In this document: piece by piece, positions 35,594 to 59,105 of the stretch
Position numbering within the stretch: position 1 is the first letter of the stretch
How the letters are laid out: each line of letters starts with the position of its first letter
Assembly (NCBI GenBank): GCA_963700635.1
Contig: CAVOYH010000004.1
Coordinates: 128,001 to 192,000, forward strand
Length of the DNA stretch: 64,000 nt
Direction of reading: 5' to 3'
Source: an uncultured Bacteroidota bacterium
Lineage (GTDB): Bacteria > Bacteroidota > Ignavibacteria > UBA10030 > UBA6906
The notes under the pieces: model-generated
What the model saw: the letters and a program-made list of their open reading frames with translations, nothing else
The model's database searches: none
Told to the model about the DNA's origin: nothing
Position numbers and translations under genes: made by a program

Positions 35594-36631
35594 ATGCTCA
35601 CGCCCCTTTCGTGGGTGTACGGTGCGGGGACGATGATCCGCAATGCCGCCTACGACCTGCAGATTCTCCGGAGTATCACTCCGAGCGTACCGGTCATTGC
35701 CGTCGGCAATCTTACAGCCGGCGGAACGGGGAAGACTCCCATTGTGGGATGGATTACCCGGTACCTGCTCACATGCGGGCTCCGCCCGGTCATCATCAGC
35801 AGAGGGTATGGGCGCAGGTCGCAGGGGGTCCGTGTGGTATCCGACGGAAACACCGTGCTGGTACAGGCGGATGAGGGGGGCGACGAGCCCGTTCAACTCG
35901 CACAGACGTTTCCCATGGTGCCGGTCGTCGTGGGTGAACGACGCACGGAGGCAGCCAGTATGGCGCTCGAGAAGTTCCGTCCGGATGTCCTCATTCTGGA
36001 CGATGCATTCCAGCACAGGGCGATTGGCAGGCATCTGAACGTCATGGTTGTTGATGCGAGCGCCGATCTGACGCGCGAACCGTTATTACCGGCCGGACGC
36101 AGGCGGGAGCGATTACAAAGCCTGCGCAGGGCATCGTTGATGGTGTTTACGCATGTCCATGGTTCCCCGGGGACGGTGGAATGGGAACCCCGTCTCCGAC
36201 ATTGGTATGGCGGAGAAATCGTGTACAGCACCAGAAGGATTACGTCGTTTCGATCCTCTTCAGGACACGCTCTGGACCCTGATGCCTGCAGGGGTAAACG
36301 GTGTGTGTTGCTGAGCGGTATCGGCAAACCCCGGCAGTTCGAAGATGATGTACGTGGCCTGGGCATAACGGTTGTGAAACATCTCCGGTATCGGGATCAT
36401 TTCCGATATTCCCTGCAGGAAATTGAGACCATGGTGGGGGAGGCCGGACAAGCCGGTGCTGAACTGCTGTTGACAACGGAAAAAGACATGATGAGGTTGG
36501 CTGCCGTTGAGGGGGCTCTGTCCAGACTTGAATCAGCAATGGAAGTGTTCGCTGCCGTTCTGGAAGTACACGTTTCTCCCGCGGGTCGGTTCGAGGCACA
36601 TATTGATGCCTGCGTGCGGCGGGCCGCATGA
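35594..36631 (+). CDS. lpxK: Tetraacyldisaccharide 4'-kinase
   Basis: VGNLTAGGTGKTP, SRGYG, GDEP, LDDAFQH and TTEKD. Confidence 0.96.
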   Translation: MLTPLSWVYGAGTMIRNAAYDLQILRSITPSVPVIAVGNLTAGGTGKTPIVGWITRYLLTCGLRPVIISRGYGRRSQGVRVVSDGNTVLVQADEGGDEPVQLAQTFPMVPVVVGERRTEAASMALEKFRPDVLILDDAFQHRAIGRHLNVMVVDASADLTREPLLPAGRRRERLQSLRRASLMVFTHVHGSPGTVEWEPRLRHWYGGEIVYSTRRITSFRSSSGHALDPDACRGKRCVLLSGIGKPRQFEDDVRGLGITVVKHLRYRDHFRYSLQEIETMVGEAGQAGAELLLTTEKDMMRLAAVEGALSRLESAMEVFAAVLEVHVSPAGRFEAHIDACVRRAA

Positions 36632-37320
36632 AACCTGTTATTGGATTGACCGATCCCATGAGTTCGCCCGTGAAATCGGAACACTACAGAACATGGTTGT
36701 CCCGGTGGATCCCCGAAGCAGAGATACGTATGCTGTCGCACACCAACAGAAGCCGCGATCCGATCGCGGGATGTCATGCATTGGTACTCTCCGGCGGCGT
36801 TGACGTCAACCCGGCACTGTATGGCCGGCCGGAGGCGGTAGACATTACGGAGAAGCCGAATCCCGAGCGGGATGATTTTGAATCGGCCCTTATCACAAGA
36901 GCGATAGAACGGAGACTTCCTGTTTTTGGCATTTGCCGCGGGATGCAGCTGGCGAATGTGGTTCTGGGCGGGACACTGTTTCCTGATCTCGAGAAGGCGG
37001 GGCACTCCGATCACCGTTCGACCCGGGACGGTGACCGGCACCACGGGTTGATCGTCGAGCCCGGCACCCTCTTGTCTTCCATCGTTGGAACGGAGGGCGG
37101 AGAGGTGAACTCCGCGCACCACCAGGCGGTAGATCAACCGGGCAACGGTCTGCGTATTGCGGCGCGATCAGCGGATGGACTGATTGAAGCGTTGGAGTGG
37201 GCCGAGCCGGACGATCACCCGTATTGTATGCTGGTTCAGTGGCATCCGGAACGTATGCGCAACGCAGAACATCCGTTAGCGCGAAAACTCATTTTGTATT
37301 TGGCAGAAGCACTCAAATGA
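36628..37320 (+). CDS. Class I glutamine amidotransferase, PuuD/peptidase C26 family
   Basis: LSGG.DV.P..Y, GICRGMQ, VNS.HHQ and QWHPE. Confidence 0.88.
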   Translation: MKPVIGLTDPMSSPVKSEHYRTWLSRWIPEAEIRMLSHTNRSRDPIAGCHALVLSGGVDVNPALYGRPEAVDITEKPNPERDDFESALITRAIERRLPVFGICRGMQLANVVLGGTLFPDLEKAGHSDHRSTRDGDRHHGLIVEPGTLLSSIVGTEGGEVNSAHHQAVDQPGNGLRIAARSADGLIEALEWAEPDDHPYCMLVQWHPERMRNAEHPLARKLILYLAEALK

Positions 37321-50820: not shown

Positions 50821-53052
50821 ATGACTACCCCGGGACATACAACAGTGCTGAGCAGGCCTGTACAGTTTGTCAAGGGGGTGGGGCCGAAAAAGGGTCAAGC
50901 CCTGAGTGTGGTCGGCATCACCTCAGTCGGGGACCTCCTGATGTACGTGCCGCGGCGGTACCTCGACCGCACCACGGTTGCGACAATTGCACAGGTTCGG
51001 GGGATGACACAGCCGGACAATGCCTTGCCGGACACAGATGTCCGGCGTGAAGCGACTGTTCTGGGAGACGTTCGTTCCTTCCGGGTCCTCGGAGCCGGGC
51101 GCAGGGCCCGCTTTGTCCTGGTCCTCGGCGATGCCACGGGCTCTCTGCAGTGCGTCTGGTTTGGAGCCGTACACTACTGGAAGTCACGTTTCAAGATCGG
51201 CGACAGTCTCGCGGTGTCGGGGCAGCCCTCCCTTTTCGGCGCGGTGCTGCAGATGGTCCATCCCGATGTGGATTGGATTGAAGGTCGCGCGGGGGAGGAA
51301 CGCGACGGGACCACAGAAGGTGGCCTTGTACACGGTGACGGGCTTATCCCGCTGTATGCAAGCACACAGGAGCTGGCGCGGGTGGGACTCGACAGCGGAG
51401 GATTCCGGCGGCTGCTTGCGCATGTGATCCGTGAAGTTCTGGAAACCGTTGTGGATCCGCTTCCCGAAAGCCTTTTACACAAACATCGTCTGCTCCCGTT
51501 ACGCGATGCCCTTCGTACTGTACACTTTCCCAAGACGGGCACCGACATTGCAGAGGCGTTGCGCCGGCTCAAGTACCAGGAGCTGTTTGAATTTCAGCTG
51601 AAGCTGGCTCTCCAGCGGAACCGGGCCAAACAGGAATCCAGAGGGATCACCTTTGCTGTGCAAAGCAAGCTGGCCCGTCAGTTTGTGGACGGTCTCCCCT
51701 TTGTGCTGACTTCTGCGCAGGTGAAAGTGGTACGGGAAATTCTGGACGATATGGGATCCCCGCAACCGATGCACCGGCTTCTCCAGGGCGACGTCGGAAG
51801 TGGCAAGACCGTGGTTGCGCTCACGGCAATGCTGATCGCTGTGGAAAATGGTTATCAAGCGGCGTTTGTAGCCCCGACTGAAATTCTAGCGGAGCAGCAT
51901 TTCCGGACAATGCGGGCGCTCCTCGGGGCTCTTCCCGTACACCATCGGCTTCTTGTGGGAGCACAACGGTCGGCCCTGCGTCGTGATGTTCTCGAAGATA
52001 TCCGTTCCGGTGCCGCCCAGATTGTTGTCGGCACACATGCGGTATTCGAAGAGGATGTTGTGTTTGCGCGTCTGGGGTTGGCCGTGATTGATGAGCAGCA
52101 CCGGTTTGGAGTGTTGCAGCGTGCGCGTATCCGCAAGAAGGGGGAGCATCCGGATGTGCTGATCATGACCGCGACGCCGATTCCCCGGACACTCTCGCTG
52201 ACACTGTACGGGGATCTGGATGTGTCCGTCATCGAAGCGCTTCCGGAGGGCCGCCGTCCGATCCGTACCCTTCTGAAGTATGATGATGAGAAGGAAAGCG
52301 TCTATCAGTTTGTGCGGGAGCAGGTGTCGGCTGGCCGTCAGGCCTATTTTGTCTACCCCCTGGTTGAGGAATCCGAGGTGCTGGACCTTAAGGCGGCCAC
52401 CGTGCACGTTGAGCAGCTGCAACGGGACGTCTTTCCGGCATTACGGCTGGGACTCCTGCACGGTCGGCTCAGCGCCGAGGAAAAAGACGGCGTCATGCAG
52501 CGGTTTGTAAGCCGGTCCCTGGATATCCTTGTGGCGACCACGGTGATAGAGGTGGGGATTGACGTGGCGAATGCAACCGTCATGGTCATCGAAAATGCCG
52601 AGCGGTTTGGTTTGTCGCAGTTGCATCAGCTCCGCGGCCGGGTGGGACGCGGGAGCGACCAGTCGTATTGTATCCTCATGACGCAGCGCTGGATTGCCCG
52701 CCGTGCGGCACGGGTCCGGGCGGCGGGAGATGATCAGGCAGCGCTTGAACAGTATCGTGCAGCGGAGCGACGGCTCGCGACCATGGTACGTACGACGGAC
52801 GGATTTGAGATTGCGGAGGCTGATCTCGAGTTGAGGGGGCCCGGTGACTACTTCGGGACCCGACAGAGCGGCATCCCGGAGTTTCGCGTGGCGAATCCGG
52901 TGCTCGACGTCGCGCTCCTCTCGTCAGCGCGTGATGATGCCTTCGCGATCGTCGCCGACGATCCATCTCTCCGTCATGAGGCGCATCGACTCCTCGCAGA
53001 GCATCTCCGCTCCCGGTTCGAGAAGGAGACGACGCTGATACAAACTGGATGA
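50821..53052 (+). CDS. recG: ATP-dependent DNA helicase RecG
   Basis: KGVGP, PRRY.D, QGDVGSGKT, DEQHRFG, MTATPIPRT, QLRGRVGR and DGF.IAE.DL..RGPG. Confidence 0.97.
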   Translation: MTTPGHTTVLSRPVQFVKGVGPKKGQALSVVGITSVGDLLMYVPRRYLDRTTVATIAQVRGMTQPDNALPDTDVRREATVLGDVRSFRVLGAGRRARFVLVLGDATGSLQCVWFGAVHYWKSRFKIGDSLAVSGQPSLFGAVLQMVHPDVDWIEGRAGEERDGTTEGGLVHGDGLIPLYASTQELARVGLDSGGFRRLLAHVIREVLETVVDPLPESLLHKHRLLPLRDALRTVHFPKTGTDIAEALRRLKYQELFEFQLKLALQRNRAKQESRGITFAVQSKLARQFVDGLPFVLTSAQVKVVREILDDMGSPQPMHRLLQGDVGSGKTVVALTAMLIAVENGYQAAFVAPTEILAEQHFRTMRALLGALPVHHRLLVGAQRSALRRDVLEDIRSGAAQIVVGTHAVFEEDVVFARLGLAVIDEQHRFGVLQRARIRKKGEHPDVLIMTATPIPRTLSLTLYGDLDVSVIEALPEGRRPIRTLLKYDDEKESVYQFVREQVSAGRQAYFVYPLVEESEVLDLKAATVHVEQLQRDVFPALRLGLLHGRLSAEEKDGVMQRFVSRSLDILVATTVIEVGIDVANATVMVIENAERFGLSQLHQLRGRVGRGSDQSYCILMTQRWIARRAARVRAAGDDQAALEQYRAAERRLATMVRTTDGFEIAEADLELRGPGDYFGTRQSGIPEFRVANPVLDVALLSSARDDAFAIVADDPSLRHEAHRLLAEHLRSRFEKETTLIQTG

Positions 53053-53068: not shown

Positions 53069-53096
53069 TTGACACAGATGCAGAATTGCTTATATT
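53069..53096 (+). promoter_or_regulatory. Promoter of the ATP-grasp/GNAT/KamA operon
   Basis: TTGACA (53069-53074), 16 nt spacer, TATATT (53091-53096). Confidence 0.62.
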
Positions 53097-53171
53097 AACC
53101 TGCAAGACAATTGAGTTTCACTACACGGACTGTTTCTGGTACCTCCTCATACAGCGCTTCCATCGACTGCG

Positions 53172-54290
53172 GTGACGATCGCATTGACCTACAACGTCAA
53201 GATGGAAGCAGGTTCTCTCCCTTCGACAACTCCCGATCAGGCAGCAGGCCCTTCATCCGACGCCGCTCTCGTTTTGTCCGTGGCGCATGCCGAACGCAAA
53301 CACGATCTGTACGCCGAGTGGGATACACTGGACACCATTCACGCGGTGCGCGACGCGCTTGCGGAACGGTTCACCGTTGAATTGGTTGAGGCCAATGCCG
53401 ATGCCTTCGAACGTTTGCGAACCATGCGACCGACTTTTGTGTTCAATATTGCGGAAGGTCTTGTGGGCGTATCACGCGAGGCGCAGCTTCCGGCAATGTT
53501 GGAATTGTTGCAGATCCCGTATCTCGGTTCTGATCCGCTGACGCTGGCGCTGTGTCTGGACAAGGGACGGACCAAGGAGGTGCTTGCGCATCATGGAGTA
53601 CGCACGGCACCCTTTGTGATGATTTCGTCGATGGAGGAACTGGACGATGCCCGTGTGCGCTTCCCGCTGATTGTAAAACCGCTTCATGAAGGATCGAGCA
53701 AAGGGATTTACAATTCGTGCGTTGCGCGCAACAGTGAAGAACTCGAAAGGGAAGTGAAGACGATTCTCGAGACGTACGATGAACCAGTGCTTGTGGAGGA
53801 ATTTCTTGCGGGAAGGGAGTTTACCGTTGCCGTGCTCGGGAACGGGAACCAGCTCACGGTTCTCCCCATAGTGGAGATCTCATTTTCAGCGTTACCCGAG
53901 GGGATGAATCCCATTTACTCCTATGAAGCGAAATGGATCTGGGACAAGGCGGAGAACCCGCTTGAGATTTTTTCCTGTCCGGCACACCTTCAGGAATCAC
54001 TTGCCGAAGAGATCCGTGCGCTGTGTACGCGCACGTACCGGGTATTACGGTGCCGTGATTGGTCGCGGATAGACGTCCGTCTTGACGGAGAGGGGCGTCC
54101 GCATATTTTAGAAGTAAATCCGTTGCCGGGTATACTTCCCCGGCCGGAAGACAATTCCTGTTTTCCGAAGGCAGCGCGGGCGGCGGGTATGACGTACGCG
54201 CAGTTGATAAATAGAGTGCTTGACATTGCGATGGCGCGCTGCGGTATCGTGGTCAGGGAACAACAAATCATGCACGACCAGATACAATAA
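53172..54290 (+). CDS. Ddl-like ATP-grasp ligase 1 (non-canonical)
   Basis: VFNIAEG, IPYLGS, DK..TK, KP..EGSSKGI, EEFL.GREF, RIDVR and LEVNPLPG. Lacks the Ddl GGxSxE motif. Confidence 0.85.
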   Translation: MTIALTYNVKMEAGSLPSTTPDQAAGPSSDAALVLSVAHAERKHDLYAEWDTLDTIHAVRDALAERFTVELVEANADAFERLRTMRPTFVFNIAEGLVGVSREAQLPAMLELLQIPYLGSDPLTLALCLDKGRTKEVLAHHGVRTAPFVMISSMEELDDARVRFPLIVKPLHEGSSKGIYNSCVARNSEELEREVKTILETYDEPVLVEEFLAGREFTVAVLGNGNQLTVLPIVEISFSALPEGMNPIYSYEAKWIWDKAENPLEIFSCPAHLQESLAEEIRALCTRTYRVLRCRDWSRIDVRLDGEGRPHILEVNPLPGILPRPEDNSCFPKAARAAGMTYAQLINRVLDIAMARCGIVVREQQIMHDQIQ

Positions 54291-54300
54291 CGGATATCTC

Positions 54301-55422
54301 ATGGGAAAAAAATTACGAATTTCTATTCTTTTTAACGAACCAGCGGTCAGCGATGAAAATCTGCAAAAACTCGTCACAGAGAACGGGCAGATCAGAAGCG
54401 ATCCGGATGCTCTATTAAAGAAGCTCGCGGCGGAAAGAACACCACGTTCCCGAAAACCGCCTCCTTCTGTCGATCTGTCTGAACTTGGCGTTATCGAGGA
54501 AATGGAAGATATCAAGATCGCCCTCGATTCCCTCGGATACAAAACCTCCATTACGAACGTCAACAGTGATGTGTACAGACTGATTGACTACCTCAGGGAA
54601 GAACGACCGGATATTATCTTCAATCTGGTGGAATGTGTCGAAAACGAATCCCTGCAGGAAATGAATGTGGCGGGACTGTACGACCTCCTGAAGATTCCGT
54701 ATACCGGAGCAGGACCTCTTGCACTGGGTACGGCCCTCAACAAACCGCGCGTGAAGGAAATTCTGACCTATCACGGCATCCGCACGCCCGACTACCAGGT
54801 CTTCCGCGCCCAGGATCGTATCGTGCTCAAAGAAGGGCTCACGTTTCCGCTGATCGTAAAACCATCACATGAAGATGGCAGCGTGGGAATTTCCGATCTG
54901 TCGATCGTCAACAACCTCAGCGAGCTCCGCAAACGTGTTCGGTTTATTCATGCAGAGTTTGAACAACCCGCCCTGGTGGAGCAGTACATCCTCGGCCGTG
55001 AGATGAACGTCGCCATCCTCGGCTCGTTACGTCCGCAGGTCCTCCCGATCTCCGAAATTGATTTCTCCGGGCTGCCCGCGGATATGCACAAGATTGTCAG
55101 TTATGAGGCAAAGTGGATGCACGGCACTGCCGCCTATGAAGGAACTCGCGGTGTCTGTCCGGCCAAGCTGACTGCGCGCCAGGAGGGGGAGATGAAACGC
55201 ACTGCGCTCACCTGCTTCCAGTTGATCGGGTGCAGGGACTATGCCCGCATCGATTTCCGCCTGACTCCTGAAGGAGTGCCGTACGTGCTGGAAGTCAACC
55301 CGAACCCGGATATTTCCGATGACGCAGGCTTCGCACGATCAGCCCGCGGTGCGGGGTATTCATTCCCTGAGGCAATAGGGAAAATCGTAGAATCGGCGGT
55401 CGAACGATGGCAGTCGAGGTAG
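54301..55422 (+). CDS. Ddl-like ATP-grasp ligase 2 (non-canonical)
   Basis: IFNLVE, IPYTG, KPSHEDGS.GI, EQYI.GRE, SYEAKW, RIDFR and LEVNPNP. Confidence 0.85.
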   Translation: MGKKLRISILFNEPAVSDENLQKLVTENGQIRSDPDALLKKLAAERTPRSRKPPPSVDLSELGVIEEMEDIKIALDSLGYKTSITNVNSDVYRLIDYLREERPDIIFNLVECVENESLQEMNVAGLYDLLKIPYTGAGPLALGTALNKPRVKEILTYHGIRTPDYQVFRAQDRIVLKEGLTFPLIVKPSHEDGSVGISDLSIVNNLSELRKRVRFIHAEFEQPALVEQYILGREMNVAILGSLRPQVLPISEIDFSGLPADMHKIVSYEAKWMHGTAAYEGTRGVCPAKLTARQEGEMKRTALTCFQLIGCRDYARIDFRLTPEGVPYVLEVNPNPDISDDAGFARSARGAGYSFPEAIGKIVESAVERWQSR

Positions 55423-55916
55423 TCACGGGAACCATACGGGCGCTCCGGCCGGCAGACCGTGAACCATTACATCGTCTGCTCGAACAAACCGGTGTCTTCA
55501 CAGACGACGAGATCGGGATCGCCCTCGAACTGATCGATACGGTCCTGCAAAAACCGGAGCAGAAGGACTATGAGATCGCCGTGTACGATGATGGCTCAGG
55601 CCCTCTCGGGTATACGTGTATTGGTCCAACACCCGGAACGGACGGGACGTACGATCTGTACTGGATAGCCGTTGCTCCCGCCCTGCACGGACGGGGTATC
55701 GGACGTGAACTCGATGCGCATGTCGGATCCACGGTGCGCGCGCGTCACGGACGCTTGATTGTCGCGGAGACCTCATCCACCCCGCGATACAACACAACAC
55801 GGATGTTTTATCAGCGCTGTGGCTACACTGAGCTTGCCCGCATCCCCGGATACTACCGGCAGGGCGACGATCTTGTAGTCTACGGCAAGTATCTTGTCTC
55901 ACAAGTAGGAGCGTGA
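55407..55916 (+). CDS. GNAT-family N-acetyltransferase
   Basis: LYWIAV.P..HGRGIG acetyl-CoA motif, ETSS, FY...GY. Overlaps the previous gene. Confidence 0.88.
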   Translation: MAVEVVTGTIRALRPADREPLHRLLEQTGVFTDDEIGIALELIDTVLQKPEQKDYEIAVYDDGSGPLGYTCIGPTPGTDGTYDLYWIAVAPALHGRGIGRELDAHVGSTVRARHGRLIVAETSSTPRYNTTRMFYQRCGYTELARIPGYYRQGDDLVVYGKYLVSQVGA

Positions 55917-55925
55917 CAGTCACGC

Positions 55926-57071
55926 ATGGAACTCTGGCAGGAAATGCTTAGGCAGAGTGTAGATAGCTCCAAAGACCTGGTTGAACGTTTTGGCTTTAAT
56001 GAGGAACTCTCCGAGAAACTCAACCGGCTGTTTCATATCCGGATCAACCCGTACTATCTCAGCCTGATCCGGTACCCGGGAGATCCCATCTGGCTCCAGT
56101 GTATCCCGGATGCCAAGGAACTGGAAGAAGATGGTCTTCCGGAAGATCCTCTCGCAGAGGACTCACACAGTCCTGTGCCAAGCATCGTACACCGATATCC
56201 GGACCGGGTGCTCTTCCTCACGACGAGCCAGTGTTCGATGTACTGTCGGTTCTGCACACGCAAGCGGAAAGTCGGCGATTCGAGCAAAATCAACATGAAG
56301 TTTATTCAGGGCGGTATCGATTACATCGCTGCGCATCCCGAAGTGCGTGATGTGATCATGTCCGGCGGTGACCCGCTGATGCTTACGGACTTCATGCTGG
56401 AAAAAATTATCTCGGGTCTGCGCGCGATTCCCCATGTCGAGATTATCCGCCTGGGCACAAAAATGCCCTGCGTGCTCCCGCAGCGGATCACTCCCAAACT
56501 CGTGAAGATGCTCAAGAAGTATCATCCGATCTATATCAATACGCACTTTAACCATCCATGGGAATGTACCACGGAAGCCAAACGGTCCTGCGAGCTTATC
56601 GCGGATGCCGGCATTCCCCTGGGTAACCAGGCCGTCCTGATGAAGGGTGTGAACGACGATCCGGATGTGATGCTCGAACTTATGCGCAAATTGCTCACCA
56701 TGCGCGTGCGGCCGTACTATCTCTATCAGGCCGATATTACCAAGGGGGCGAATCACTTCCGTGCTCCGGTCAGCGTCGGACTCGACATCATGGATAAGCT
56801 CCGGGGTCATACCTCAGGTCTGGCCATTCCGCATTTTGTGATCGACGCGCCAGGCGGTGGGGGCAAAATCCCGCTTCTGCCGCAATACGTCCTGGGCAGG
56901 AACGGAAATCAGATCATCATGCGCAACTATAAATACGACATCTTTACCTACCCGGACGTCGAGGAAGACCCAAAAATTCCGACTCCGACAGTCGAGCGCC
57001 GGTTCACCCGGAAGAAAAAAGGCCCGCGCCGGCTTATGCGCCGGATGAGGCAGGGGTGTAGGGGGGGGTGA
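55926..57071 (+). CDS. KamA-family radical SAM/PLP 2,3-aminomutase
   Basis: HRYPDR, CSMYCRFC, SGGDPL, HFNHP, NQ.VL, PYYLYQAD and FVIDAPGGGGK. Confidence 0.93.
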   Translation: MELWQEMLRQSVDSSKDLVERFGFNEELSEKLNRLFHIRINPYYLSLIRYPGDPIWLQCIPDAKELEEDGLPEDPLAEDSHSPVPSIVHRYPDRVLFLTTSQCSMYCRFCTRKRKVGDSSKINMKFIQGGIDYIAAHPEVRDVIMSGGDPLMLTDFMLEKIISGLRAIPHVEIIRLGTKMPCVLPQRITPKLVKMLKKYHPIYINTHFNHPWECTTEAKRSCELIADAGIPLGNQAVLMKGVNDDPDVMLELMRKLLTMRVRPYYLYQADITKGANHFRAPVSVGLDIMDKLRGHTSGLAIPHFVIDAPGGGGKIPLLPQYVLGRNGNQIIMRNYKYDIFTYPDVEEDPKIPTPTVERRFTRKKKGPRRLMRRMRQGCRGG

Positions 57072-57125
57072 CGTAGCCGGGAAGATCTGCCGGCAAGGCT
57101 GATCGATACGGTGATGCTGGATAAG

Positions 57126-57174
57126 AAACCGCCGGGTGGCGAGAGACACTACCCGGCGGTTTTTTTCTTTTTTT
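57126..57174 (+). terminator. Intrinsic terminator closing the KamA operon
   Basis: aaaccgccgggt...acccggcggttt stem followed by a long T-rich tract. Confidence 0.85.
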
Positions 57175-57245: not shown

Positions 57246-59105
57246 ATGCGTATTCCCGAGACGACCATTGATGAGATCCGCAACGCAACCGACATCGTCG
57301 AGGTGATCGGTGCCTATGCCCGATTAAAAAAGCGCGGCAAGAACTACATCGGACTCTGTCCGTTCCATCAGGAAAAAACCCCGTCGTTTACTGTCAGCGC
57401 CGAGAAACAGATGTTCCATTGCTTCGGTTGCGGCGTGGGCGGGAATGTGTTCACATTTTTGATGGAGCACGACAAACTTTCGTTCATAGAAGCGGTTCGC
57501 ACACTTGCCGACCGCGCCGGAATCCGGTTGCCCGAAGAGGGAAGAGACGACCGGGAGGAAATCACCGAACAGGAGAAGCTCCTGAGCCTCTGCCGCGCTG
57601 CAGCTCTCCGGTTTCATGACAACCTGATGACAAGCGTTGAGGGAAGCATCGCCCGGGAGTATTTTCGTCACCGGGGCCTCACCGATGCGACCATTGCAGC
57701 ATTCGGCCTGGGGTATTCGATGAACTCCTGGGATGATTTCCTCTCCTATGCACGGCGGGAGGGGTTTGACCCGGTGTACCTCGAGAAGGCGGGATTGATC
57801 GTGCGCCGTGACGACGGATCCGGGTTTTACGACCGGTTCCGCGGGCGAGCGATGTTTCCGATTTTCTCGCCGACCGGCCGCCCGATCGCCTTCGGCGCCC
57901 GGAAGGTGCGCGAGGACGACCCGCTTGCCAAATATATCAATTCGCCGGAAACGCCGGTGTATAACAAGAGCCGGGTATTATATGGTCTCTCCCAGGCAAA
58001 AGACGCCATCCGCGACAAGGATTTTGCGCTGCTCGTGGAGGGCTATATGGACCTCATCACACTTCACCAGGCAGGCTTCCAGCATGTTGTGGCATCCAGC
58101 GGTACGGCGTTAACGACGGAACAAATTCAATTGCTGGGCCGGTACACAAAACACATTACGCTTGTCTATGACGCCGACTCTGCCGGCTCAAAAGCCGCAC
58201 TGCGGGGTGGAGATCTGGTTCTGGAACAGGATATTGATGTTCGTGTGGCCGAACTCCCTGCAGGCGAAGACCCGGACTCCTTTATCCGGAAGCAAGGACC
58301 AAAGGCGTTCCAGGCTATACTTGACGGCGCGGTGTCATTTCTTGAATTCCGGGCCATTCAGCTTGAAGCGGCGGGCGCGTTTTCCACGCCGGATGGGAAG
58401 GCGCAGGCAATCCGAACCCTGGTAGAGACGGTTGCGCGGATGCGAGATGAACTGAAGCGGACCTTTTTTATCAAGCGTCTGGCGGAGCAGTACGATATCT
58501 ACGAAAGTGTGTTGTTCCGCGAACTGGAAAGCGTGCTCGGAAAGCAACAACAGGCGAGCAGGGTTGAGCGAAACATCCCGCGCTCTGCTCCGGCGGAGAC
58601 CCCGCCGCCAGCTCACCGCGTGGTGCAGAACCAGAGTATCCCACCTGCCGAACGGGACCTTCTGAAACTGATGCTTGAACACGGCAGTGCCATGGTGCGT
58701 TACGTTCGGGAACTGATCGATCCTGCACAGTTCACATCCACGACCGCCCGGTCGATCCTTGCCGTGCTTCTGGATCACGACGAGGCGGGGGAATTCTGGG
58801 ATGCCGGTATGATTATGGATGATCTGCAGGATGCCTCGCTGAAACGTATCGTGACGGAACTGATGATCTCGCGCTATGAGATCAGCAAGGGCTGGCAGGA
58901 AATGGGTTCTGAACCTGCGCTGCCCGACCCGCGGAGCATGGCGTCTGACTGTATCGCCAGGATGCAGCTTCTCTCTCTGGACGAGCGTATTGCGGAAACG
59001 TATCGTCTGATGAAAGACTCTGAGCTGCGGGGGGAAGACAGCACGGAGTTCCAGCAGGAGATTATGCGGATGCAGCGGGCCAGGAAGGATGTGCGGGGGC
59101 GTTGA
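57246..59105 (+). CDS. dnaG: DNA primase
   Basis: CPFH.EKTPSF, CFGC, RFRGR.MFPI, KYINSPET, EGYMD, YDAD.AG and DPD. Confidence 0.97.
   Translation: MRIPETTIDEIRNATDIVEVIGAYARLKKRGKNYIGLCPFHQEKTPSFTVSAEKQMFHCFGCGVGGNVFTFLMEHDKLSFIEAVRTLADRAGIRLPEEGRDDREEITEQEKLLSLCRAAALRFHDNLMTSVEGSIAREYFRHRGLTDATIAAFGLGYSMNSWDDFLSYARREGFDPVYLEKAGLIVRRDDGSGFYDRFRGRAMFPIFSPTGRPIAFGARKVREDDPLAKYINSPETPVYNKSRVLYGLSQAKDAIRDKDFALLVEGYMDLITLHQAGFQHVVASSGTALTTEQIQLLGRYTKHITLVYDADSAGSKAALRGGDLVLEQDIDVRVAELPAGEDPDSFIRKQGPKAFQAILDGAVSFLEFRAIQLEAAGAFSTPDGKAQAIRTLVETVARMRDELKRTFFIKRLAEQYDIYESVLFRELESVLGKQQQASRVERNIPRSAPAETPPPAHRVVQNQSIPPAERDLLKLMLEHGSAMVRYVRELIDPAQFTSTTARSILAVLLDHDEAGEFWDAGMIMDDLQDASLKRIVTELMISRYEISKGWQEMGSEPALPDPRSMASDCIARMQLLSLDERIAETYRLMKDSELRGEDSTEFQQEIMRMQRARKDVRGR

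Follow-up and report, generated by a model that had tools for sequence, protein, structure and literature searches.

Within the 64,000-nucleotide stretch of DNA analysed here (the window), four same-strand open reading frames, here called A, B, G and K, follow each other with intergenic gaps of 10, −16 and 9 nt in what is predicted to be a co-transcribed unit, with a promoter and leader on one side and a terminator on the other (Table 1). The RecG gene ends upstream at position 53052, the DnaG gene starts downstream at 57246, and no efp/epmA, kamDE, mur or fts gene adjoins the operon. In these respects the open reading frames and Pfam matches at the locus agree with an earlier, sequence-only reading of this DNA, which had placed four tightly packed genes between recG and dnaG with none of those partners beside them.

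Table 1. Predicted features of the four-gene operon, in window coordinates.
Feature	Position	Strand	Basis
Promoter, sigma-70-type TTGACA-16-TATATT	53069..53096	+	Sequence scan; pattern in 62/66 relatives
5′ leader, ~69 nt, with conserved sequence motifs	53103..53171	+	Alignment of relatives' leaders
Ligase A, Ddl-fold ATP-grasp, 372 aa	53172..54290	+	Pfam Dala_Dala_lig_C
Ligase B, Ddl-fold ATP-grasp, 373 aa	54301..55422	+	Pfam Dala_Dala_lig_C
G, small GNAT acetyltransferase, 169 aa	55407..55916	+	Pfam GNAT; orthologue of PDB 2r7h
K, KamA-family radical-SAM/PLP 2,3-aminomutase, 381 aa	55926..57071	+	Pfam Radical_SAM + LAM_C
Intrinsic terminator, long GC-rich hairpin then U-run	57129..57174	+	Sequence, folding

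The proposed TTGACA/TATATT promoter is the top site of the promoter scan, with 11 of 12 positions matched; since that scan found 4 sites against 3.8 expected, the match in a single genome proves little. The predicted promoter is instead borne out by its conservation, as a pattern of this type lies no more than 200 nt upstream of A in the great majority of relatives with a full 5′ end and is kept despite leaders of widely differing length. The claim of a strong terminator also held up: the hairpin, with its stem at 57129–57159, folds at −30 kcal/mol (z −6.1), and none of 200 shuffles was as good. A simple terminator scanner did not list this hairpin on the + strand; its one entry here was a 5-bp piece from the − strand. 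Two candidate functions of the leader were rejected. For an RNA element, RNAalifold gave no consensus pairs among 33 leaders and an Rfam search of the leader returned two sub-threshold chance matches and no family; for a leader peptide or conserved uORF, stops break every frame in many relatives.

The aminomutase K passes the KamA-family model TIGR00238 (296.7 bits against a cut-off of 199.2) and is the sole KamA protein of the host genome. Aligned to 2a5h, it shows C125, C129 and C132 of the CxxxCxxC motif and the PLP lysine K337; the motif and Arg134 occur in all 117 sequences compared, Asp293 and Lys337 in 116 and Asp330 in 115. Arg134, Asp293 and Asp330 make the residues of K lysine-type, which backs the earlier KamA-type assignment as far as homology can indicate. 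K scores 462 bits on the lysine model, 414 on the glutamate model and 330 on the arginine model, so that of the two products named in the sequence-only reading, beta-lysine is retained and beta-arginine appears less likely.

That reading had also seen none of the usual KamA partners next to the genes, and for the host genome both the AblA/AblB pair and EF-P beta-lysylation can be excluded. In the former pathway, as given in the available part of PMC11337218, a lysine 2,3-aminomutase and then an acetyltransferase, encoded by an ablB of 870 bp, yield N-epsilon-acetyl-beta-lysine. The operon resembles it in pairing, on one predicted transcript, a lysine 2,3-aminomutase and a GNAT acetyltransferase, but differs in that two ATP-grasp ligases are core members, G does not match the AblB model TIGR03827, and K remains below the AblA cut-off (TIGR03820; 462 against 525 bits, the match ending at model position 363 of 417) and has Asp in place of Cys268. 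No AblB-family gene was found in the host genome, which is 97% complete, while the control was matched in 6 of 14. With the EpmA/EpmB system, as far as the accessible text of PMC2821294 describes it, the operon has in common a KamA-family enzyme as the supplier of beta-lysine; the host, in contrast, has no EpmA, its best genX match being a 508-aa protein read as LysRS (249 bits, below 286.9), its EF-P carries Asn at the tip instead of the modified Lys34, and K reaches 235 on the EpmB model against a cut-off of 369. The lysine 5,6-aminomutase family PF09043 had no match in the host genome, and its control matched nowhere either.

The two ligases have the Ddl ATP-grasp fold and its catalytic residues, with a ligase model at pLDDT 90 whose top Foldseek matches are all Ddl. 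They lie below all Ddl cut-offs (A and B score 200 and 162 bits against the curated 243) and are without the Pfam Ddl N-terminal domain. These scores, together with a true Ddl elsewhere in the host genome (446 bits, cut-off 262), bear out the view that neither is the Ddl of the host cell. The fold and the ATP, Mg and acyl-phosphate residues, the latter conserved at 100% or close to it in each clade, are common to A, B, Ddl and its re-tooled relatives (VanA/VanC, mycosporine MysD); what sets A and B apart is their apparent occurrence as a pair of diverged paralogues, the replacement of His63 by Glu (142/143 A, 128/128 B) and that of Tyr216 in the D-Ala site by Trp. The second-substrate carboxylate loop is lost and acidic residues are gained in B only, not in A: the Gly276 position is Gly in 205/209 A and Asp or Cys in 253/254 B, and a Ser281-type loop is present in 163/209 A versus 0/254 B, counts that overstate independence because the aligned sets are rich in kin. 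In the host, A has Glu95 for His63 and keeps G320 and S329 as the equivalents of Gly276 and Ser281, while B has Glu111 for His63, Asp337 for Gly276, no Ser281 loop and an extra Asp192. The roles of these Ddl residues (His63, Gly276, Ser281) and of those of KamA (Arg134, Asp293, Asp330) are taken here as background, and a literature search found no paper stating them.

The acetyltransferase G is an orthologue of PDB 2r7h (E 5e-35; profile E 3e-52), whose name, "Putative D-alanine N-acetyltransferase of GNAT family", is a guess of the depositors and on whose function a literature search found no paper. After 2r7h, the nearest solved relatives of the G profile are, weakly, RimI and N-terminal protein acetyltransferases.

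The genes of the operon have stayed linked across several phyla of bacteria and also on DNA of archaeal appearance. All four are present in 72 of the best 80 loci, with 6 more cut by contig ends, and in a 301-genome phylum sample 60 of the 61 genomes with A also have G and K, 9 genomes retaining A, G and K though the genes are dispersed; in the single exception a contig end falls inside B. This linkage and co-inheritance substantiate the idea of a conserved functional unit. The gene-neighbourhood survey of the four families, which had been proposed as a check alongside a mention of similar sets in other phyla, found all four genes in 31/60 regions of the Desulfobacterota sample and 26/38 Acidobacteriota regions, in the orders A-B-G-K and K-A-B-G. 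A, B and K also share contigs on which archaeal markers are among the neighbouring genes, the taxonomy of these contigs being inferred. Within the host order the operon lies among housekeeping genes in 31/31 other sampled genomes. Fusions link K with A (K-A twice, A-K once), A with B (18/61 long representatives) and B with G (6 loci), although the genes fused are ones that adjoin anyway and a lost stop codon may account for some cases. A horizontal island was considered and rejected: the GC content of the operon (52–57%, against 55–61% around it) and synteny to recG in 58/80 loci, a clustering that also took in the host genome's own regions, indicate that it is not a recent insert. A search of viral sequences with G gave no match, and one with the B alignment gave 2 loci; at one of these a B-type gene stands alone.

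A possible link to polyamines emerges from the neighbourhoods. In 15 loci a pyruvoyl arginine decarboxylase lies directly upstream, mostly with an agmatinase and often with a deoxyhypusine-synthase-like gene; as these loci form one side of one branch (support 76), they may reflect a single old linkage, and independent origins are unsupported, since one origin suffices. No such neighbours occur in the 38 Acidobacteriota regions or the 20 other Bacteroidota regions, and the host genome has an arginine decarboxylase and two DHS-like genes far from the operon with no agmatinase match. Five loci, from two phylum samples, have a GNAT-deacetylase within the operon, the best solved relatives of this enzyme being acetylpolyamine amidohydrolases. 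On this genomic context a polyamine is a plausible acceptor. PuuD/C26 neighbours within 4 kb, seen in 7 loci, were given no weight.

In the model that we favour, and regard as probable, beta-lysine would be ligated twice and then N-acetylated to give a cationic amide metabolite, making the operon a cytoplasmic, non-ribosomal route to a small beta-lysine amide. K would turn L-lysine into beta-lysine, a step well favoured by homology. Ligase A would form the acyl phosphate of the beta-lysine carboxylate and pass it to an acceptor that retains a carboxylate, e.g. a second beta-lysine or lysine, following which B would form a second amide with a cationic acceptor devoid of a carboxylate at the Ddl position, the leading candidates being a di- or polyamine (putrescine, agmatine, homospermidine) or the growing beta-lysine oligomer. 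G would then acetylate an amine left free, and the acetylpolyamine-amidohydrolase-like enzyme of some lineages may take the acetyl group off again. Of the two forms of this model, an all-amino-acid product is a tentative choice, short of an even chance, and a polyamine acceptor a more doubtful one. The acetylated di/tripeptide or amide of the sequence-only reading is kept as an amide, which may be a polyamine amide or oligo-beta-lysine rather than a di/tripeptide. The likely role would be that of a housekeeping polycation or stress solute, with its charge tuned by acetylation.

Among the alternatives, each of which we judge unlikely, the least so is that the ligases add beta-lysine to a protein or other macromolecule in the manner of RimK, with G capping the tag like RimI. 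The fixation of the operon among housekeeping genes in the order, its conserved strong promoter, the weak affinity of G to RimI and N-terminal acetyltransferases, the small-substrate carboxylate loop lost in B, and a stand-alone B paralogue that adjoins a C39-peptidase-like gene in 11/80 metagenome loci would all suit such tagging, but the closest structures of the ligases are all small-molecule Ddl enzymes, no target gene or short peptide recurs beside the operon in the loci surveyed, the leader reading frame is unconserved and Asn occupies the modified position of EF-P. Somewhat less likely is that G acts first or alone as an AblB analogue, K and G making N-epsilon-acetyl-beta-lysine that the ligases extend, store or recycle. 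G and K do adjoin in the host order, joined by the deacetylase in the 5 loci, and an aminomutase with an acetyltransferase follows the AblA/AblB logic, yet G, at 169 aa, contrasts with the 870-bp ablB in the available part of PMC11337218 and has no match to its model. Moreover, the fusions observed, in a search not aimed at K-G fusions, join G with B and K with A, and the invariant Glu at His63 would fit a free charged side-chain amine.

Cell-wall modification, with the ligases either producing a different dipeptide or placing beta-lysine on murein precursors, is improbable. It draws on the Ddl ancestry of the ligases and on dispersed sets in which G is at most one gene from what we take, by its motif, to be a glutamate-racemase-like gene (4/5 loci); against it stand the host's separate true Ddl and the lack of recurring mur genes beside the operon, and the set on archaeal-looking contigs makes it the weaker option, such archaea not being known as makers of murein. 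A similar role is proposed, in the part of PMC5987646 available to us, for a Ddl-like ligase with an aminomutase in a lichen Nostoc. Least probable, by a little, is that K acts on arginine or on lysine already in an amide, so that the product would not derive from free beta-lysine. K passes only the broad KamA cut-off and one lineage has arginine decarboxylase and agmatinase neighbours, but the lysine model scores best, Asp293 and Asp330 are kept, a LysA-like decarboxylase lies inside the operon at one locus, and a stand-alone B in the host genome follows lysine-saccharopine genes.

Returning to the favoured beta-lysine amide, blasticidin S (BlsG/BlsI), glutathionylspermidine synthetase and streptothricin provide precedents. 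Together with bellenamine, they exemplify ATP-grasp ligation of an aminomutase-made beta-amino acid, an ATP-grasp enzyme with a polyamine acceptor, beta-lysine oligomers and beta-lysyl diamines; these systems differ, however, in using other ligase families or NRPS and in making specialised metabolites, whereas the operon is fixed in a whole order. Amidoligases were reportedly surveyed by gene neighbourhood in 2009 by Iyer et al., who may already have pointed to these four genes. Bellenamine and streptothricin are named in the supplement of PMC5987646, and the parts of that paper available describe the cluster of the Nostoc "D-Ala-D-Ala ligase 3" as containing a Ddl-like ligase, a lysine 2,3-aminomutase and SET methyltransferases, its authors proposing that a beta-lysine moiety is moved to an unknown acceptor. 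By this description the ligase without the usual N-terminal region, co-transcribed with a lysine aminomutase, is shared with the operon, and a single ligase, methyltransferases in place of a GNAT and a nearby efflux pump set that cluster, with its proposed function, apart. A negamycin preprint, in its accessible portion, presents a pathway without an ATP-grasp ligase, and the available parts of PMC12361552 and PMC8473136 are unrelated to the operon. The literature search found no characterisation of the operon and no described product, in keeping with the earlier statement that none was known.

Fixation in the 31 sampled genomes of the order and survival of dispersal suggest a core function, which would concern poorly studied microbes of sediment, soil and groundwater. 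More tentatively, and with less than even confidence, we suggest an ancient and undescribed route, common to several phyla of bacteria and to some archaea, to a reversibly N-acetylated beta-lysyl-polyamine (or oligo-beta-lysine) polycation. If true, this would be a branch of polyamine-like metabolism built from re-tooled cell-wall ligases, for which the name D-Ala-D-Ala ligase is at present a widespread mis-annotation. The way residues differ between A and B, with the chain of fusions, offers an experiment on four enzymes whose outcome would be easy to read, and two ligases taking beta-amino acids, if such they are, would find use in making beta-peptides and polyamides. In the databases, 7935 of 8000 scored candidates reached E ≤ 1e-50 for A, with members of the A and B clades counted together; thousands of proteins called "D-alanine-D-alanine ligase" fall into these clades, so that a whole pathway is hidden under the wrong name.

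The operon formed by two Ddl-fold ATP-grasp ligases (A and B), a GNAT (G) and a KamA-family aminomutase (K) belongs to a real and widespread pathway, apparently uncharacterised and built from known enzyme families, which, as judged from sequence, would be a variant form of non-ribosomal β-amino-acid amide synthesis, and it brings to light a large mis-annotated family. No study of the four-gene set was found in the literature searched, subscription journals and bioRxiv supplements being beyond reach; a 2009 paper by Iyer et al., reportedly a neighbourhood survey of amidoligases, may already note the gene cluster. A Ddl-like ligase of a lichen Nostoc, encoded with an aminomutase and methyltransferases, is proposed in PMC5987646 to transfer methyl-β-lysine to an unknown acceptor or to modify murein.

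The coordinates given in the sequence-only reading for the four ORFs, the promoter, the terminator and the recG and dnaG flanks were all borne out, and the strength claimed for the terminator agrees with its hairpin (folding energy −30 kcal/mol, z −6.1). For the promoter, a scan of the region returned 4 sites against 3.8 expected, so that the lone match at the operon is within chance. However, 62 of the 66 relatives whose match extended to the start of A have a TTGAC...TAnnnT pattern 5' of it, in almost every case TTGACA-16-TATATT. No recent-insert signal was seen in the base composition across the operon. In the leader (53103-53171), as in those of relatives L001-L080, a GGAG/GAGG motif stands after a conserved TGT-N3-ACA-like element and has a CTTCC-like partner at a fixed distance; these motifs gave no consensus fold, and may serve as an operator or, in this family, for ribosome binding ahead of a CTG start that is in frame at 53139. 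A peptidase C26/PuuD-like gene (36628-37317) lies among lipid A-type genes 16 kb 5' of the operon.

Genes of the operon in window coordinates
Feature	Position	Strand	Basis
Ligase A	53172-54290	+	ORF and domain match
Ligase B	54301-55422	+	ORF and domain match
GNAT G	55407-55916	+	ORF and domain match
KamA K	55926-57071	+	ORF and domain match

The four families co-occur elsewhere, in counts that come from kin-rich samples throughout and do not represent independent trials: 72 of the best 80 GTDB loci read A-B-G-K in order, six being cut by contig ends and two holding A-B only. In an even draw of 301 Bacteroidota genomes, 61 had A, 64 had G and 105 gave a strong match to KamA, with A present in 31/31 other genomes of the source genome's order. 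G and K were each found in 60 of the 61 A-bearing genomes, the lone miss being a contig that ends inside B, and the four extra G matches, which are the weakest, comprise one 3' of a cut B gene and three that stand alone. Nine genomes retain A, G and K although these are on separate contigs or widely spaced, and B was seen in the three where it was sought. A-like matches extend to 74/251 genomes of Desulfobacterota and 40/201 of Acidobacteriota (the phyla of L061 and L076), with all four genes, often ordered K-A-B-G, in 31/60 and 26/38 of the regions retrieved, respectively. Metagenome loci add a further layout, in which B is convergent on A-K and adjoins a different GNAT family; an archaeal prepilin peptidase is among the neighbours on those contigs, as is a phosphoribosyltransferase of archaeal type. 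At L130-L138 a two-component pair of histidine kinase plus response regulator, possibly a pathway regulator, sits between A and K-B. The order at L254 (5849-11954), whose contig also carries an SRP54/Ffh-like gene, is A, B, a weak MurL-like gene, a LysA-like decarboxylase and KamA.

The source genome encodes a single KamA, and none of its three known uses accounts for K. A role in EF-P β-lysylation (EpmA/EpmB, defined in PMC2821294) was rejected because the best EpmA match is below the cut-off and reads as a lysyl-tRNA synthetase, and because Asn takes the place of the modified residue in EF-P; a role in the osmolyte pair AblA/AblB (defined in PMC11337218) was rejected because no ablB was found in the genome and G gave no match to the AblB model. 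The placing of K outside known uses thus held for these two, while lysine fermentation, sought through kamD, is only weakly excluded. The orthologue of G is a structural-genomics entry, 2r7h, labelled ‘putative D-alanine N-acetyltransferase’. The genome also has a stand-alone B paralogue; a B-type ligase that stands alone at L081 (5376-9424; G000 C4, 289-293 kb) converges on a lysine-oxoglutarate reductase/saccharopine dehydrogenase-like gene pair, with ~230 nt between them.

That A and B are Ddl-like is upheld by their match to the Ddl C-terminal domain, albeit with scores under every Ddl cut-off, and the predicted structure of B has the Ddl fold (pLDDT 90). In a FastTree tree A (143 sequences) and B (129) form separate groups, with weak basal support. 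Since the ATP, metal and acyl-phosphate residues are retained in both, each looks active. In E. coli DdlB numbering, mapped by alignment, His63, which we take to line the donor side chain in Ddl structures, is replaced by Glu in 142/143 A and 128/128 B, and Tyr216 mostly by Trp in both. The Gly276 position is Gly in 205/209 A and Asp or Cys in 253/254 B, the Ser281-type loop, whose serine presumably binds the acceptor carboxylate, occurs in 163/209 A and 0/254 B, and B has an additional Asp192 (115/128). Taken with the site roles assumed for Ddl, the patterns at His63, Gly276, Ser281 and Asp192 suggest that the donor would be cationic for both ligases, and that A may take an amino acid as acceptor and B a molecule that is larger, cationic or free of a carboxylate. 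Fusions of K-A or A-K (3 of 11 proteins scanned), A-B (18 of 61 long representatives) and B-G (6 loci) form a chain in keeping with K, A, B, G as the order, though gene adjacency also governs which fusions arise and they can be artefacts. Double A-A fusions (L143, L144, P0125-P0167) have Ser at the Gly276 position of the first domain, a change reminiscent of B, and no G was found in the two such loci examined (L143, L144). Among other relatives, a ligase is fused C-terminal to a SAM methyltransferase domain (L172, 6469-8385), and a lone B-type ligase with its catalytic motifs lies on a 91-kb viral contig (L233, 7968-8906). Distant single ligases lie 5' of a CapA/PGA_cap family gene on the symbiosis plasmid pNGR234a (L098, 6773-9855) and other rhizobial plasmids, and, facing KamA, after a diaminobutyrate transaminase, sbnA and an ornithine-cyclodeaminase-like gene on a Thioflavicoccus plasmid (L099, 3557-9038), which we read as a diamino-acid variant of the ligase and KamA theme.

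A polyamine acceptor is a tentative lead and not a result. A pyruvoyl arginine decarboxylase gene lies directly upstream of the ligases in 15 loci, of which 14 also have agmatinase there and 8 a deoxyhypusine-synthase-like gene, and the polyamine-linked genomes tested hold G elsewhere in 5/5 and a KamA elsewhere in 7/7. In five loci from two phylum samples the operon includes a GNAT fused to a deacetylase; this fusion scores closest to acetylpolyamine amidohydrolases (253 bits vs 127 for HDAH). It is kept as a lead because one change on a 37-row tree suffices for all 15 loci (support 76), because polyamine-gene neighbours are absent from 38 Acidobacteriota and 20 further Bacteroidota regions, and because in the source genome neither the arginine decarboxylase nor either of two DHS-like genes is linked to the operon; agmatinase was sought there and not found.

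Protein tagging by the ligases, which we consider improbable, would be in line with the weak RimI-likeness of G and with the C39-like peptidase adjoining stand-alone B in 11 loci, but no target gene recurs. These metagenome loci (L252, L258, L259, L265, L266, L268, L271-L273, L275, L280), of which all three read have the pair divergent, are possibly a separate make-and-break system. That G acts first, as an AblB analogue, is at odds with the fusion pattern and seems quite unlikely. Cell-wall modification would draw on the Ddl ancestry of the ligases and on a glutamate-racemase-like gene neighbouring G in 4/5 dispersed loci read; it is rendered very doubtful by a true Ddl at a separate site of the genome (446 bits vs cut-off 262) and by archaeal-looking carriers. 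Least credible is that K acts on another substrate than lysine.

Among the profile models K is above the broad KamA cut-off only, scoring best on the lysine model (462 bits, cut-off 525), with 414 bits for glutamate, 330 for arginine and 235 for EpmB. Compared with Clostridium 2a5h, K retains the three cluster cysteines, Arg134, Asp293, Asp330 and Lys337, which we take to be functional positions of lysine 2,3-aminomutase, and lacks Cys268; in 117 neighbouring KamA proteins the cysteines and Arg134 are kept in 117, Asp293 and Lys337 in 116 and Asp330 in 115. The C-terminus of K (56990-57071) is a very basic tail reaching ~25 residues past the region matched to 2a5h.
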